64,000 bases of DNA. Source: Octopus vulgaris (taxonomy: Eukaryota). The DNA lies in contig OX597841.1 of the NCBI GenBank assembly GCA_951406725.2, positions 2,728,001 through 2,792,000 on the forward strand, given 5' to 3'. Under the pieces are notes generated by a model. The model saw nothing but the letters and a program-made list of their open reading frames with translations. It had not been told where the DNA came from and ran no database searches. The position numbers were made by a program, and so were the translations under genes. Shown here one piece after another: positions 630 through 59,575 of the stretch (the first letter of the stretch is position 1; each line of letters opens with the position of its first letter).

Positions 630-975
630 TTACACGTGGCTTAAATGTCCTGTGAACGAATTCCTTTTAATCAGCTGATAATTCATTTCTAATAACTCTA
701 ACGCATTCCTCAGCTACCAGATACACACACACATATAACAAAACTATCCCTTATGAAACATTTCCCTAAGTATTAAACAATGAAGATCTTCCATGCTTTT
801 AATTCTGTAGACGTTCGGTTTTTTTGGCGCATCGATTCTTTGTTTCTCCTCTGTGTTTTATGAACGAATGATGTCCTTGACTTTTGCGTGATTTGGCTGC
901 TATTTCTAGCAATCGATGAGAGATGTCTATAATTTCTGCAAGATTTAGCTATTATTTCCAGCTATCGACGAGAGA
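630..975 (+). promoter_or_regulatory. Second, degenerate copy of the upstream module; also at ~7925-8163, ~13600-13945 and ~19170-19420
   Basis: Same sequence blocks as the module at 1480, but the donor is mutated (TTCCCTAAGT) and there is no GCGCATGCG site. Confidence 0.5.
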
Positions 976-1415
976 TATGCAATAATATACACCCGGAAGA
1001 TCCTAGAAGGACTTGTCCCAAACTTTGGCATCGAGAGTTACACAAATGCCAGAACTGTGTGCCACTGCGTGGTGTCAAGGACTCCAAATTTGCCATCAAG
1101 ATGTAGGACAAGATATTGTGATAGCCTGGGCTTCAGGGGCCCACAGCTCTTCAATATCGTCCCGAAGAACCTGAGAGACCTGCATGGGGTGGATGCAGAT
1201 ATCTTTAAAATAAAACTGGGTCTCTTCCTCTCAGGTATCCCAGATGAACCAACTTCACGGCAGGAGGTGCAGATGAGGGCAGCTGCATCGAACTCTCTCA
1301 TGCACCAAATGGCAGGTGCTAAAAAGCATTCGTGAAGTAAAATCATGTAGCAACACCAAATGGCGGTGCCCCAGCATGGCCACAGCTCGCGTGCTGAAAC
1401 TGGATTAAATAATAA
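966..1415 (+). mobile_element. 3' fragment of a CR1/L2-group LINE; copies at ~8166-8520 and ~13935-14390
   Basis: ERYAIIYTRKILEGLVPN..GPQLFNILPKNLRD..FKIKLDLFLSGIPDEP resembles a LINE ORF2 C-terminus, followed by an (AAT)/(AAAT) tail. Confidence 0.7.
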
Positions 1416-1479
1416 TAAATAAATAAACAAGATATTAAACCCAATTGATTTAAGGAGAATTAGCTCCCTTCGCTATTTT

Positions 1480-1815
1480 CTACCGACACATGCGCGTTTA
1501 AACGTCCTTCCTGCTTGACGTTGATATCTGGTTAAATGTGCAGGTGCGTGAATTTCTCTTAATCAGCTAATAATACATTTATAATAGTTCTAATGTATTC
1601 CTCAACTACCAGACACACACATACATAACAACACTGTCCTTTATGAAACACTTCCGTAAGTATTAAACAATGAAAATATTCTGTAGACGTTTCGGTTTTT
1701 GGCGCCTCATTTCTTTGTTTCTCTTCTATGTTTTATGAATGAGAGATGTCCTTCGTTTGTGCGAGATTTGGCTGTTATTTCTAGCTACGTGTGTGATTTA
1801 GCTGCTATTTCTAGC
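1480..1815 (+). promoter_or_regulatory. ZNF upstream module (putative promoter, non-coding exon, intron start); copies at ~8590-8935 and ~14450-14800
   Basis: Degenerate NRF1-like ACACATGCGCG at 1486, CAG|GTGCGT at 1544, CC|GTAAGT at 1656, then two GATTTGGCTGYTATTTCTAGC-type monomers. Homologous to the modules upstream of the other ZNF genes. Confidence 0.6.
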
Positions 1816-3754
1816 TTTGGAAGCTACCGTCTGCACTCTCCATCGTTGCCCCGTTTGTTGCGTGTTTTAGTTTGAGAAATGTACTGAAAGACACCCTGAC
1901 CACTGAAATGTTTAGAAGCGAAAACCTTATTTGGTTAATGTTTACAACATTACTTGGAAACGAAATAAAATAAATTAATAAAAGACTTCCACCAAAGCCC
2001 ACCCCTATTTTCTCCCAGATTTGTTTATTAAATTTTTTTTTTCCCATTATAATCCCCGTTTTCGAATACGGAGATTCCGGAAAATTGCCAAAAATCGGCA
2101 TTGTGAAAATTCCCCGACTAGCTTCTTCAATTTTGACCTTTTTCCGTAACACGAACCCTAAAACCCTAACCGTAAGTACAGAGATGCTTTGAAATTTTTG
2201 TCCGTATCCTGATGTCTCCGTATTTTTCCGCATTTTTAGAAAAGAAAAAAATTCTTTAAAAAAACATTTTACAAAGATTTTTGGAATTTTTTTTCATAAT
2301 CATAATCTCCGTATTTTCCCGCATATTTTAAGGAGAAAAAAGTTTAAAATCATGGAAATGGGGGAGGAGTTGGTGTAGTTTAGAAATGTCAATTTTTGCT
2401 GATTCGCATTCCCCGTAGCCGAAAGGGGAAGGGGTGTATAAAAAAGGTTTAGAAAAGGGTTTGAGGGGATGATGTAATCATAGATATACAACACTATACA
2501 AACAGACAGGATTGTCATGGATGGAATGTCATTAAACACATGTCTGCTCTGTCAGAAGTGACCTGGATCTAAAGAACAGTATCAAGTTCTATTTCTGAGA
2601 AGGACTAATGTTAGTGTCCCCTATTCTGTGGTTTTCTTTTCAAACTGTTACAAAATGTGGAGGGGTCAGTGTAGTTTACAAATATGTCAGCTTCACACAA
2701 GATTCTGTGGAGTAAATTTTGATAAATTAGGATGTTCATTTGATCATCGTCTTTTCATTATCCATTGTCCATGCTGGCATGGTTGGATGGGGAGCTGCAG
2801 CAGCCTTCAGTCTGAATTGTCATGGTTTCTACTGGATGCCTTTCCAAGTGCCAACCACTACATATTGTGCCATAGGGTGCTTTTATGTGGCACCACATGG
2901 ACATTTGAATGTAGCAGCATTTTTACATGGCATTGCATGGCTACTTTTATGAGGAATGGCCGTAAGTGCTTTTAACTAGAAGAGGGATGAGTCTTAACAC
3001 ATCTGTTATGAAGTGTGGATCTTCTTGAGTACAACAAGGCACCAGGAATGTTGGTCCTTTGTCATCTCACCTGAAAAGTTCTTCAGCACTTCATAGCCTG
3101 TCTTTCTGGGTGACCCACATGTTCCATCTGCTTTTAGAGGTTAGCACTTCTTTATGGTGCTGTCAGCATCCAGCTCACTTAAGGCAAATGTTTATCTCTT
3201 CAGATTATCTCTATAGAAATGAATCATTTATTTTTTTAAATAGCCTCTACATCTGACACTGTTCTTTGTCTTTAATTTCAGAGCACCAGATGACAGTGGT
3301 GTAACGGAAGACGAACCCTCAACTCTATCCTGTTTTAAAGACTGAAAGAAAATATTCTATGAAACAGATGTATCAGATTGGTTTTACAAAACTGTAGAAG
3401 AATTCCTGTGAAACATTTGTTCTGAAAAAATGTTATTAGCCAAATTTCTGGACATCACCAACTGGAGTGTGAAGAAGAGAAGCCTGTGTGCTGATTGAAG
3501 TTGGATAAATTAATTGAAGTGTTGCTAAACATAAGTAACACTGGACAGAAATACAGCAGAAGAACTGCTTGCAAGAAATAAAGTATAAAAAGAGAAAGAA
3601 GAAAAAATATAAACTGGGATTTGAGAGGCAAAATATTGGAAGAGAGTGAAAAAATTGTATGATTCATTTCTTCTGAACACATGAGAGAAGTGATTAGATC
3701 ATGTGACTGTGATATCTTTACAGATGTCTTTTTGTAAAAGAAAGTAAACTAATT

Positions 3755-57156: not shown

Positions 57157-58129
57157 TCTTTTTCCTCACAAATCCCAGTTTAAATATTTTTCCTGCTTTC
57201 TTCTTACACTTTATTCCTTACAAATGCTCCTACTACAGCTGTATTTCTGTCCAGGGTTACCTTTCTCTAGCAGCAATTACATAAATTTAATCCAAGTTTC
57301 ATCAGAACAGGAGCCACTCTTCTTCATGCTTCAGTCAGTGATGTTCAGAAATGTTTCACAGGAATTCTTCCACAGATTTCTAGAAGCAATGCTATACATC
57401 TGCCTTGTATAATAATTTCCTTTATTCCTTAAAACATGGTAGATATAGTTTCTTCCGTTATGTCAATGTCATCTGATGTCCTGAAATCAGATAGAAACAA
57501 CAGTGTAAGATGTAGAGGCTACTCAAAAAATACAGATTCATTTCTATTGCGATAAACTGTAGAAATAAACATTTCCCTTAACAACAGAATATTTGGATTT
57601 ATTAAAATTAACATCACATCATTTTATAACCATGATTTTCTGTTCACCCTGTAATCTTAATTTCAGGGTAAATTTCATAGTTCTACTAATGATTGAAGAT
57701 TCGTTTAGTTTTTTTGTCTCTGGATAAAAATGGTAACAGGTTGAAAAGAAAGTTATGTTGCATTTTCAAGTGAAAAGGGGAAAGAGAATTGGGTTAACAT
57801 GTAGTTTAGTCTTATAAAATAGTGAAAGTAAATTGCTCCTAAAAACATGAACGTGTTCCGAGATTGAAACCTGGAGTGACAGCAAGTGACATCCCAGGAT
57901 TCCATGCAAACAATGAATGTAATATAAGAAATGTTTCCAATACAGAAATGTACAGCTATTTAATATAACAGGGAAACTGTACAAGTATTTTATGTAAGAT
58001 GAAAATAATAACATTTATGAGAAAACAGAAGAGTTATTGATGCACGAAACGAGATTCATGAATAGTTATTCCCAATCTCATAATTTGTGTTGCTGTGCAT
58101 GCTCAAGATATGTAAATAAATCATCACTA

Positions 58130-58880
58130 TACTGGGTAGGAGTAGGGGTCCACCAAGGATCAGTCCTCAGCCACCTCTTATTTATCATAGTCTTCCAGGA
58201 AATAACAGAGGAATTCAAGACAGGCTGCCCCTGAGAGATCTTTTGTGCTGATGACCTTGCTCCAATAGCTGAGTCACTCCCAGAAGTACCAGTGTAGAAG
58301 TTTCAGGTGTGAAAGCAAGATCTAGAATCGAAGGGCCTTAGAGTCAACCTAGCAAAAGCCAAAGTCTTAGTAAGTAGGAAGGCAGACAAATTCCAAATCC
58401 CTTCAGGTAGATGGCCCTGCTCGATGTGTAGGAAAGGTGCAGGCAGAAACTCCATAAGATGTACCCAGTGTAAGCTTTCGATACATAAGTGGTGCAGTAA
58501 TATCAAAATAAGGTTAACTGGGAAGATGGTTATTGTGTGTGGCAGATGCACAGGGGCAATAAACACTGAAAATGAGCAGAGAACAGCCTCCATCACAAGC
58601 CAGGAGGAAAAACTAGAAGTAGCTAATAGCTTCCATTATCTTGGTGACAAATTTAGCAGTTAGGGTAGGTGCTCTGAGAGCGTAGCTGCTAGAATAAGAA
58701 TAGCCTCGGCAAAGTTCAGAGAGCTCCTGTGTCTGCCGGTAACAAAGGGCCTCTCACTCAGAGTGAAAGGTAGACGGTATGACACGTGTGTGTGAACAGC
58801 TATGCTACATGGCAGAGAAACATGGGCGGTGACTGCCAAGGACATGCATTAGCTTGAAAGAAATGAAGCTCATATGATCT
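58130..58880 (+). mobile_element. RTE reverse-transcriptase fragment in the putative intron of ZNF 55912
   Basis: GVHQGSVLSHLLFIIV and a degenerate (F)CADDL catalytic motif, followed by the same Cys-rich segment as 50620. Confidence 0.85.
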
Positions 58881-59279
58881 AGGAAATCCCAACATGTGTT
58901 CTTTTTGATCTGATACTCTTGTCCCCATCGCTTGGAAAACAATTTCCCCAGAAAGTTCTTCATATAATCGTAATCCATGCCGTTCCGAAGGTATAAACTT
59001 TCATTAAAAGATTCCCGTTTTTCTGAAAGTTATTAGGGGGGAAAATTCGTTCCCATAAATCCCTACATATTCTGAATATACAGCATTTAAGCGATATATT
59101 TTGAAAATTTCGTTTAAAAGTATCCCTTTTTCTCAAAGTTATCCGCCAACAAAGTCAATGGGGTACACATCTGTAGTTATGCCGCTTTCTGACCATTTCA
59201 GTGGTTGGAGTGTATTCCAGACTATTTCTCAAACTAAAACACTACAAACTGACCTGGCAACGAAGGAGATTGTACGAGA

Positions 59280-59575
59280 TAGCTTTCTCCGTTAGAAACA
59301 GCAGCCAAATCCCGCACAAATCAGACTCAAAGAATCGACGCGCGAAAAACCGAAAGTCTACAGAATCAAAAACAACGAATATTTTCCTTGTTTAATACTT
59401 ACGGAAATGTTTCACAAAGGATAGAGTTGTTATATATATATCTATCTGGTAGTTGGAAAATGAATAATAAGTATTATTAGCGTATTAATCAGTTGATTAA
59501 GAGAAATCAAAGCCCAGGACATTCAAACCAGATATCAACGTGAAGAAAGAAGTACGCTCAATGCGCATGCCTAAC
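59280..59575 (-). promoter_or_regulatory. Upstream module of ZNF 55912-57156
   Basis: TGCGCATGC at 59562, ACTTACGG at ~59397, one degenerate monomer at ~59295; acceptor at 57481. Confidence 0.6.

Follow-up and report, generated by a model that had tools for sequence, protein, structure and literature searches.

The DNA analysed here is a stretch of 64,000 nucleotides of the Octopus vulgaris genome (C28:2728001-2792000, in a genome of 2.8 Gb; hereafter the window, whose numbering is used for the positions below), which carries nine arrays of C2H2 zinc fingers (ZNF) and, upstream of them, repeated copies of one module. This module is the shared first exon of one ZNF clade, neither common to all octopus ZNFs nor a mobile element, and is likely to be the promoter of that clade as well. 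The explanation that we favour, with a probability of about 0.65, is that the non-coding exon 1, its GT donor and the likely promoter have been copied together with the genes and sometimes swapped among them, and that an 18-bp core, the centre of a monomer found in intron 1, likely stems from an old insertion resembling a short interspersed element (SINE) and was likely retained as a protein-binding site.

A profile scan detects 12 full modules in the window, at 593, 1482, 7888, 8587, 13565, 14451, 19133 (+), 27507 (-), 29445 (+), 45982 (-), 46169 (+) and 59580 (-), together with one displaced piece (44174). A same-strand module precedes each of the eight ZNF genes whose upstream region lies inside the window (five of the eight have intact long frames), and the remaining four modules (593, 7888, 13565 and 19133) are orphans, in agreement with an earlier note on this DNA that had counted about 12 modules, one before each such gene, plus orphans. 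All four orphans are of the 630-type, with CC|CTAAGT in place of the donor and no NRF1-like motif, and three of them directly precede 1480-type modules within a 6-7-kb tandem duplication; several modules stand head-to-head, e.g., 45982/46169. The donor CC|GTAAGT that the note had proposed for the modules at large is present in the others and dead in these four. The six exon-2 acceptors that it had listed (3281, 26592, 32733, 42781, 48139 and 57481) all exist, and two more were found (9719 and 15587). The features of the window (UTR, untranslated region; ORF, open reading frame) are:

593..962, + strand: orphan of the 630-type with two monomer cores (893, 945); its donor is dead (CC|CTAAGT at 764) and the NRF1-like motif is missing.
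1482..1815, + strand: 1480-type module, degenerate NRF1-like motif at 1487, GT donor at 1656, two cores 30 bp apart (1768, 1798).
3281..5936, + strand: acceptor 3281, exon 2 (5' UTR) and 25-finger C2H2 array, frameshifted, longest ATG frame 126 aa.
7888..8168, + strand: orphan 630-type module, dead donor, truncated 5' of the monomer.
8587..8934, + strand: 1480-type module, donor 8761, two cores, followed by acceptor 9719 and a broken ZNF array (10232-11636).
13565..13931, + strand: orphan 630-type module, two cores, dead donor.
14451..14797, + strand: 1480-type module, donor 14625, two cores, followed by acceptor 15587 and a broken ZNF array (16100-17190).
19133..19416, + strand: orphan 630-type module, dead donor, no downstream same-strand ZNF; inverted relative of the 27-kb module, ~90% identical.
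19417..20679, + strand: 25-unit array belonging to the 19133 orphan, with a higher-order 154-bp repeat of three units (52+52+50).
25249..26592, - strand: acceptor 26592, exon 2 and intact 11-finger ZNF ORF, 364 aa.
26997..27252, - strand: intron-1 monomer array of 5 units.
27258..27507, - strand: full module with ACGCATGCGCA (27497-27487), exon 1 and GT donor 27344, divergent to the 29445 module.
29445..30135, + strand: full module with ACGCATGCGCA (29455), donor 29624 and cores at 29702, 30068 and 30118.
32733..33946, + strand: acceptor 32733, exon 2 and intact 10-finger ZNF ORF, 305 aa.
41141..42781, - strand: acceptor 42781, exon 2 and 14-finger ZNF ORF, 405 aa.
43932..44175, - strand: displaced piece of the 45982 module, pyrimidine tract and three monomers, moved ~1.6 kb by insertions.
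45768..45982, - strand: module with ACGCATGCGCA (45972-45962) and donor 45802, head-to-head with 46169, motif spacing ~207 bp.
46169..46445, + strand: module with ACGCATGCGCA (46179) and donor 46353.
46446..47727, + strand: intron-1 array, 25 units of 51 bp, 95% matches.
48139..49728, + strand: acceptor 48139, exon 2 and intact 14-finger ORF, 421 aa; exon 2 is 97-99% identical to the 57481-type exon 2.
55912..57480, - strand: exon 2 and intact 13-finger ZNF ORF, 414 aa.
57481..59402, - strand: intron 1, GT..AG, 1922 nt, removed by splicing in the contigs of two runs, X1 and X2, with a single core at 59308-59291.
59403..59580, - strand: non-coding exon 1 and NRF1-like motif variant (59571-59562); contigs reach 59546.

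The association of the module with ZNF genes extends well beyond the window. A 16-bp word at the donor has 98 exact copies genome-wide, 85 of them on C28 (none for the reversed word, reversed sequences serving as chance controls for such counts), and a pattern combining the NRF1-like motif and the donor has 89 matches. In the window and the contiguous 200 kb that adjoin it, 264 kb in all, a module lies upstream of 33 of the 34 C2H2-ZNF arrays (one split array merged), as it does for 22 of the 25 arrays of a second cluster, another locus selected by its donor-word matches. Among 20 distant donor-word matches, 15 lie at most 9 kb from a finger array on the same strand, three are modules without an array and two show neither, and variants of the module are present on C1, C4, C8, C20 and C29. 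The idea that all octopus ZNFs have the module was rejected: when the exon-2 acceptor word was used to choose 20 sites, 17 carried no module in the upstream stretch examined (up to 8 kb, ~2-6 kb for five sites), and the three module-bearing sites were known beforehand to lie in module clusters. A separate observation concerns loci L191-L197 (C28:7.89 Mb and C31), where dispersed copies of the exon 2 of the module clade are followed by at most three fingers, with no module in the stretch examined; these are likely a duplicated pseudogene family.

The candidate promoter consists of familiar motifs. GCATGCG is found in 79 of 93 modules and is followed by a strict YTTCCG in 29 of these 79, and CGCATGCGC occurs in 71 of the 93; we take TTCCG and YTTCCG to be ETS-like. 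The modules contain a conserved GCGCATGCGC-like motif, and the genome has an NRF1 gene (the one for the DNA-binding domain PF10491 is on C4). In the window, the NRF1/Ewg motif GCGCATGCG that the earlier note had assigned to the modules is exact in four of 12, present as a one-base variant at 59580, degenerate in the three 1480-type modules and absent from the four 630-type ones, while a general second donor CAG|GTGCGT does not hold, CAGGTGCGT being found in 7 of 51 modules. TATA-less, bidirectional promoters of the NRF1/ETS type are well known, and the modules share with them the GCGCATGCGC-like palindrome, the TTCCG close by and the head-to-head gene pairs, but differ in that 7 of the 12 window modules have a degenerate motif or lack it and that binding by NRF1 is only predicted.

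Splicing from a GTAAGT donor to its predicted acceptor, as the note had anticipated, is seen for 59402 and 57481: contigs of X1 and X2, two runs of one study with RNA status guessed, join 57479 to 59402 and skip 1922 nt with CT..AC ends, exactly the intron predicted from the sequence, this evidence covering one donor and one module type. No such joint occurs in X9 or in the DNA-like X16, and X16 contigs span the intron. The exon-1 contigs stop at 59546 and 59528, before reaching the NRF1-like motif; contigs cannot show starts, and X16 also has no cover there. Exon 2 comprises the 5' UTR and the entire finger array, and the ORFs start ~0-60 aa before the first finger, with no KRAB-like N-terminus. 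In all eight window genes, exon 2 was also observed to hold 6-17 upstream ATGs before the main frame, the leaders extending 250-470 nt into exon 2 for seven of them; such long leaders are a possible translational brake.

A largely common descent of module and gene is evident over 81 genes, where module and exon-2 similarity are strongly correlated (Mantel r 0.83, p 0.001), which bears out the proposal that gene duplication has spread a common non-coding exon 1 along with a promoter-like region. Discordant pairs do exist, 15 with module identity of at least 0.93 but exon 2 of at most 0.85, and 52 the opposite way. For example, the 46169 module and one located 198 kb away are 98% alike, yet the two genes agree by only 81% in exon 2, and the exon 2 of the 46169 gene is 97-99% like that of five genes with modules only 74-78% alike. 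Partners switch at the first monomer in one chimeric group, one pair parts at the array end, and other switches fall ~125-145 bp before the acceptor. As far as the alignments tell, the swaps are recombination in intron 1, in cases too few to call the arrays hotspots, and the "portable" cassette of the earlier note appears portable only as an occasional swap between paralogs, no element-like ends being seen. An independently mobile cassette inserting before ZNF exons is highly improbable: orphan modules, modules on C1, C4, C8, C20, C28 and C29 and the discordant pairs would all suit it, but modules track ZNF genes and overall co-descend with exon 2, orphans sit within larger duplications, the junctions lie in intron 1 as recombination predicts, and terminal repeats or target duplications were not noticed in the module alignments, on which no formal search was made.

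The core of the intronic monomer is conserved to the same degree as the donor and the NRF1-like motif. In the 27 of 34 non-redundant modules that have a core within 300 bp, ungapped identity is 0.91 on each of the three vs 0.52-0.57 in the windows adjoining the core, and a gapped alignment (24 of 31 modules) gives 0.88 on the core vs 0.51-0.65 around it. Consensus differences, in counts compiled by hand, amount to 0 of 18 in the core vs 22 of 49 in the flanks (Fisher p 0.0003). The exact core is common to two diverged clusters 19 Mb apart, with differing donor-to-core spacing. In the second cluster, one core lies 64-75 bp 3' of the donor in all 24 modules and is exact in 23, and because all 24 are single-copy, a single core copy is likely ancestral. 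The core thus looks selected and would likely be a protein-binding site, judging from its conservation pattern. An RNA hairpin formed by the core palindrome was rejected: the right-arm G varies in 8 of 24 modules and its partner C differs in 3 (judged by eye, with no covariation test).

The core is also part of an old dispersed repeat. The genome contains 4,198 exact copies of it, or 25,508 if one mismatch is allowed (reversed controls: 0 and 1); C1 has roughly one exact copy per Mb, most of them solitary. A pattern made of its flanks alone matches 1,849 places, with the core or a decayed version of it in the middle, and 34 old copies yield a ~215-bp consensus with a (GTT)n end, linked to the core. 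This repeat accounts for ~6 of the 10 profile matches in 200 kb of random sequence (reversed control 0), and another 18-mer of it has only 693 exact copies; dispersed copies chosen by another of its parts match the core at 0.74 (17 of 20). Short, dispersed, in high copy number and with a simple-repeat tail, it appears SINE-like. No match to Pol III A/B boxes was obtained on the consensus, which is decayed, nor anything at gathering level in Rfam at the core of 20 dispersed loci. The ZNF monomer unit shares 32 bp with the repeat, and the sequence 3' of the last array unit is collinear with its end (13 of 25 positions, shuffle p 0.003); because of these two matches, the ancestral intron likely held one end of the repeat.

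The ZNF-type core, extended to 22 bp, has 359 copies, and among 100 matches listed 88 are on C28 and 12 on C1-C27; a module is present at two of the four isolated copies examined. Within three mismatches, 282 cores occur in the 264 kb vs 5 in 200 kb of random sequence, a ~43-fold enrichment. The earlier note had regarded an ordinary dispersed fragment of a transposable element (TE), with no enrichment at ZNFs and no effect on expression, as a finding that would overturn its proposal: the core is indeed a piece of an old dispersed repeat, but it is strongly enriched in the cluster and seems to be selectively preserved in the modules.

Core sequence was also met in other repeats. The C1 loci L081-L094 belong to a young, non-autonomous ~2.2-kb element with copies 95-99% identical and Helitron-like ends (5' TC, 3' hairpin and CTAG); it contains, far from ZNFs, the old repeat with its core as 2-5 tandem units of ~105 bp, and represents about half of the flank-pattern matches among 100 listed. 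A ~550-bp repeat holds 5-6 degenerate core copies between unlike spacers (L165:39-434 and 9533-9928; L168:1886-2486 and 8911-9186; L169:629-909); on C29 and C4, ZNF genes lie between inverted copies of it, the upstream one of which twice ends in CCCTAA before the module. A palindromic repeat in L030 and L040, similar to a miniature inverted-repeat transposable element, has the exact core in both arms, and core-like words in further repeats (L047, L054 and L056) indicate that the motif recurs in unrelated repeat families.

Monomer number ranges from 1 to 40. The counts of the earlier note, which had called it variable, recur unchanged in the window: 1 at 59.3 kb, 2 at 1.8, 8.9 and 14.8 kb, 3 at 30 and 44 kb, 5 at 27 kb and 25 at 19.4 and 46.5 kb. 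Its monomer length of 50-52 bp applies to the arrays but not to 1.8, 8.9 and 14.8 kb, where cores are 30 bp apart, and the 19.4-kb array, correctly counted, belongs to a dead-donor orphan without a same-strand downstream ZNF. In the 264 kb, 17 arrays of 4-40 units are arranged head-to-tail with periods of 50-52 and differing spacers, as in minisatellites, and further arrays exist on C28 and C29. Within the array unit the core varies least, and it is single-copy in the second cluster vs up to 40 units in the window cluster. The array in the dead 19133 module indicates growth not tied to function; copy number shows no correlation with intact finger number (rho 0.15, p 0.42, 31 rows), and intact-frame genes with 0-1 core near the donor exist.

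Under the favoured explanation, the NRF1-like motif, often followed by the ETS-like TTCCG, would likely start transcription ~150 bp before the donor, and exon 1 would be joined by splicing, as seen for one donor, to a large exon 2 that includes the 5' UTR and all the fingers of the array. The ancestral gene likely received the end of the ~215-bp repeat 50-130 bp into its intron, after which the flanks of the inserted repeat would have decayed and the core stayed at consensus, the conservation being observed and the selection presumed. A factor binding the core would also meet tens of thousands of similar genomic sites, and the leading guess for it is a member of the family acting in feedback. 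In some subfamilies, core and spacer would have become the 50-52-bp minisatellite, expanding by slippage or unequal exchange, its exact copy number likely reflecting mostly neutral turnover; the arrays could then act as junctions for promoter swaps, as in the two cases seen. By analogy, the whole may operate like a promoter of the housekeeping type that has been duplicated and contains a site taken from a repeat.

Several observations weigh against this explanation. Identity anchored on the core is inflated by the choice of cores with at most five mismatches, the anchoring inflating all three peaks, and 7 of the 34 non-redundant modules have no core within 300 bp, several of them after insertions. 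The surroundings of the donor are conserved as well, so that recent common ancestry or conversion accounts for part of the signal, and in the dispersed copies too the core is kept somewhat better than other parts (0.74 vs 0.59-0.66), at the level of the left flank. Outside the core, homology of the modules to the ~215-bp repeat is modest. Finally, the contigs with the splice joint have 30 letters on the short side and differ by 4-5 letters, besides coming from the same study and resting on a guessed RNA status, and may derive from 96-97% identical paralogs instead.

A possible but clearly less probable reading is that an ordinary duplicated promoter carries the monomer as a neutral passenger, a repeat fragment without a role that is alike among genes through recent duplication or conversion and multiplied by minisatellite expansion. 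The genome-wide presence of the core, the 25-unit array inside a dead orphan, the tandem core units of the young Helitron-like element far from ZNFs, the independence of copy number from intact fingers and the intact-frame genes with 0-1 core all agree with it, but it does not readily account for a core that stays at consensus while its flanks drift, or for the exact core in two diverged clusters with different donor-core spacing. Another view is a tunable, TE-sensing feedback, in which a family ZNF would bind the core both in the old repeat and in the introns of its relatives and array length would set repression or release for each paralog. The position of the core just inside intron 1 is fixed, arrays with different spacers and periods occur in several lineages on C28 and C29, the core is the most constant part of their unit, and the available part of PMC10547256 suggests ZNF-on-ZNF feedback in zebrafish and mammals and includes octopus ZNFs among those tested for predicted TE binding. 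On the other hand, a whole subfamily is single-copy, and arrays grow in dead modules and in the Helitron-like element as well, which makes this view unlikely. An extended version, in which the clade would have domesticated an old SINE-like site into every first intron as a feedback element, with a repeat-policing family ZNF binding the introns, 1-40 copies forming a rheostat for each paralog and the arrays serving as promoter-swapping recombination joints, is speculative and equally doubtful.

A core acting as a cluster of sites for the MADS-box factor MEF2, with activity-dependent or muscle/neural control, is quite improbable. The MEF2 consensus is CTA(A/T)4TAG, and the core palindrome GCTA-TTTC-TAGC has its shape; the earlier note had put the monomer core one base from this consensus. 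The fit is nonetheless poor: perfect sites make up 9 of 332 units, and long arrays have none among their 247 internal units. The C that departs from the consensus is retained in 322 of the 332 units, the last base of TAG is not G in 8 of 24 non-redundant modules, and the conserved stretch runs 5' past the palindrome. Among the literature matches listed for MEF2 with a co-searched term, none evidently treats such a site, and the loop-anchor motifs in the accessible text of PMC13652810 do not mention MEF2.

C2H2-ZNF genes are expanded and clustered in coleoid cephalopods (PMC9068888, in part), in tandem clusters of multi-finger genes formed by whole-gene duplication as here, but the sections of that paper at hand make no mention of a shared promoter, exon 1 or intronic repeat. 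Supplements of PMC10547256, as far as available, give ~1,500-2,200 ZNF ORFs in two Octopus species, vs the single clade, of the order of 100 or more genes, that the module marks. The zebrafish FZNF family, in the accessible portion of the same paper, is comparable in its lineage-specific expansion, family-wide promoter types and proposed ZNF-on-ZNF repression, and differs in that its promoters are TATA or TATA-less, with no repeat-derived intronic site or variable array described there. Human ZNF91 likewise binds the variable tandem repeat of a retroelement, SVA, and such elements influence ZNF clusters (PMC8015857, in part); however, SVAs are whole young elements near genes, whereas the octopus site is a short old fragment fixed in intron 1 of each paralog, its binding only putative, and the clade proteins lack the KRAB-like N-terminus of KRAB-ZNFs. 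Satellite-like arrays of oyster Helentrons (PMC7492417, in part) are similarly short tandem arrays related to mobile-element sequence, as are the core units of the Helitron-like element here, but the octopus ZNF arrays lie outside that element, with their own spacer and a fixed place in host introns.

The 18-mer had no match in literature text and is absent from seven supplementary files of PMC10547256, files 3-5 of which, outside the search, possibly contain the repeat library for octopus and the motif predictions; no description of the module was found in the literature consulted, which dealt with promoters of octopus ZNFs, loop motifs, SINEs and repeats in first introns of ZNFs. The module is family-wide and made of known parts, and is apparently described in detail nowhere. 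Its notable piece would be the selected, repeat-derived core; copy-number tuning and autoregulation are offered as hypotheses. A family-wide promoter candidate, and one 18-bp site that the ZNF genes have in common with repeat copies numbering in the tens of thousands, provide a handle on the regulation of the large ZNF expansion of cephalopods and on any engagement with repeats of the kind known from vertebrate KRAB-ZNFs. The site allows a test of ZNF-repeat feedback outside vertebrates, the paralogs form a natural series of 0-40 core copies, and promoter swaps are a route by which new finger arrays gain different upstream control.

Some further features of the window accompany the modules. 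A CAG|GTATTT donor-like site lies ~55 bp 5' of each 630-type module (536-545, 7827-7836, 13506-13515 and 19075-19084) and ends a G+C-richer block; the dead modules may lie in an intron of another transcript. An orphan copy of the exon-2 acceptor region (28759-28968, 97% identical to 32574-32782) lies in the interval that separates the 27.5-kb and 29.4-kb modules, which are divergent. Intron 1 of the 33-kb gene contains a near-palindromic ~680-bp insertion with GT/CA tracts (30289-30972), half of which recurs in intron 1 of the 41-kb gene (45351-45662). Tandem growth also affects other repeats, with nine head-to-tail 164-bp copies (96% matches) at 21778-23236 of a short interspersed repeat that is single elsewhere in the window; at 35749-36424, a 112-bp part of another common repeat is present six times in tandem (98%).

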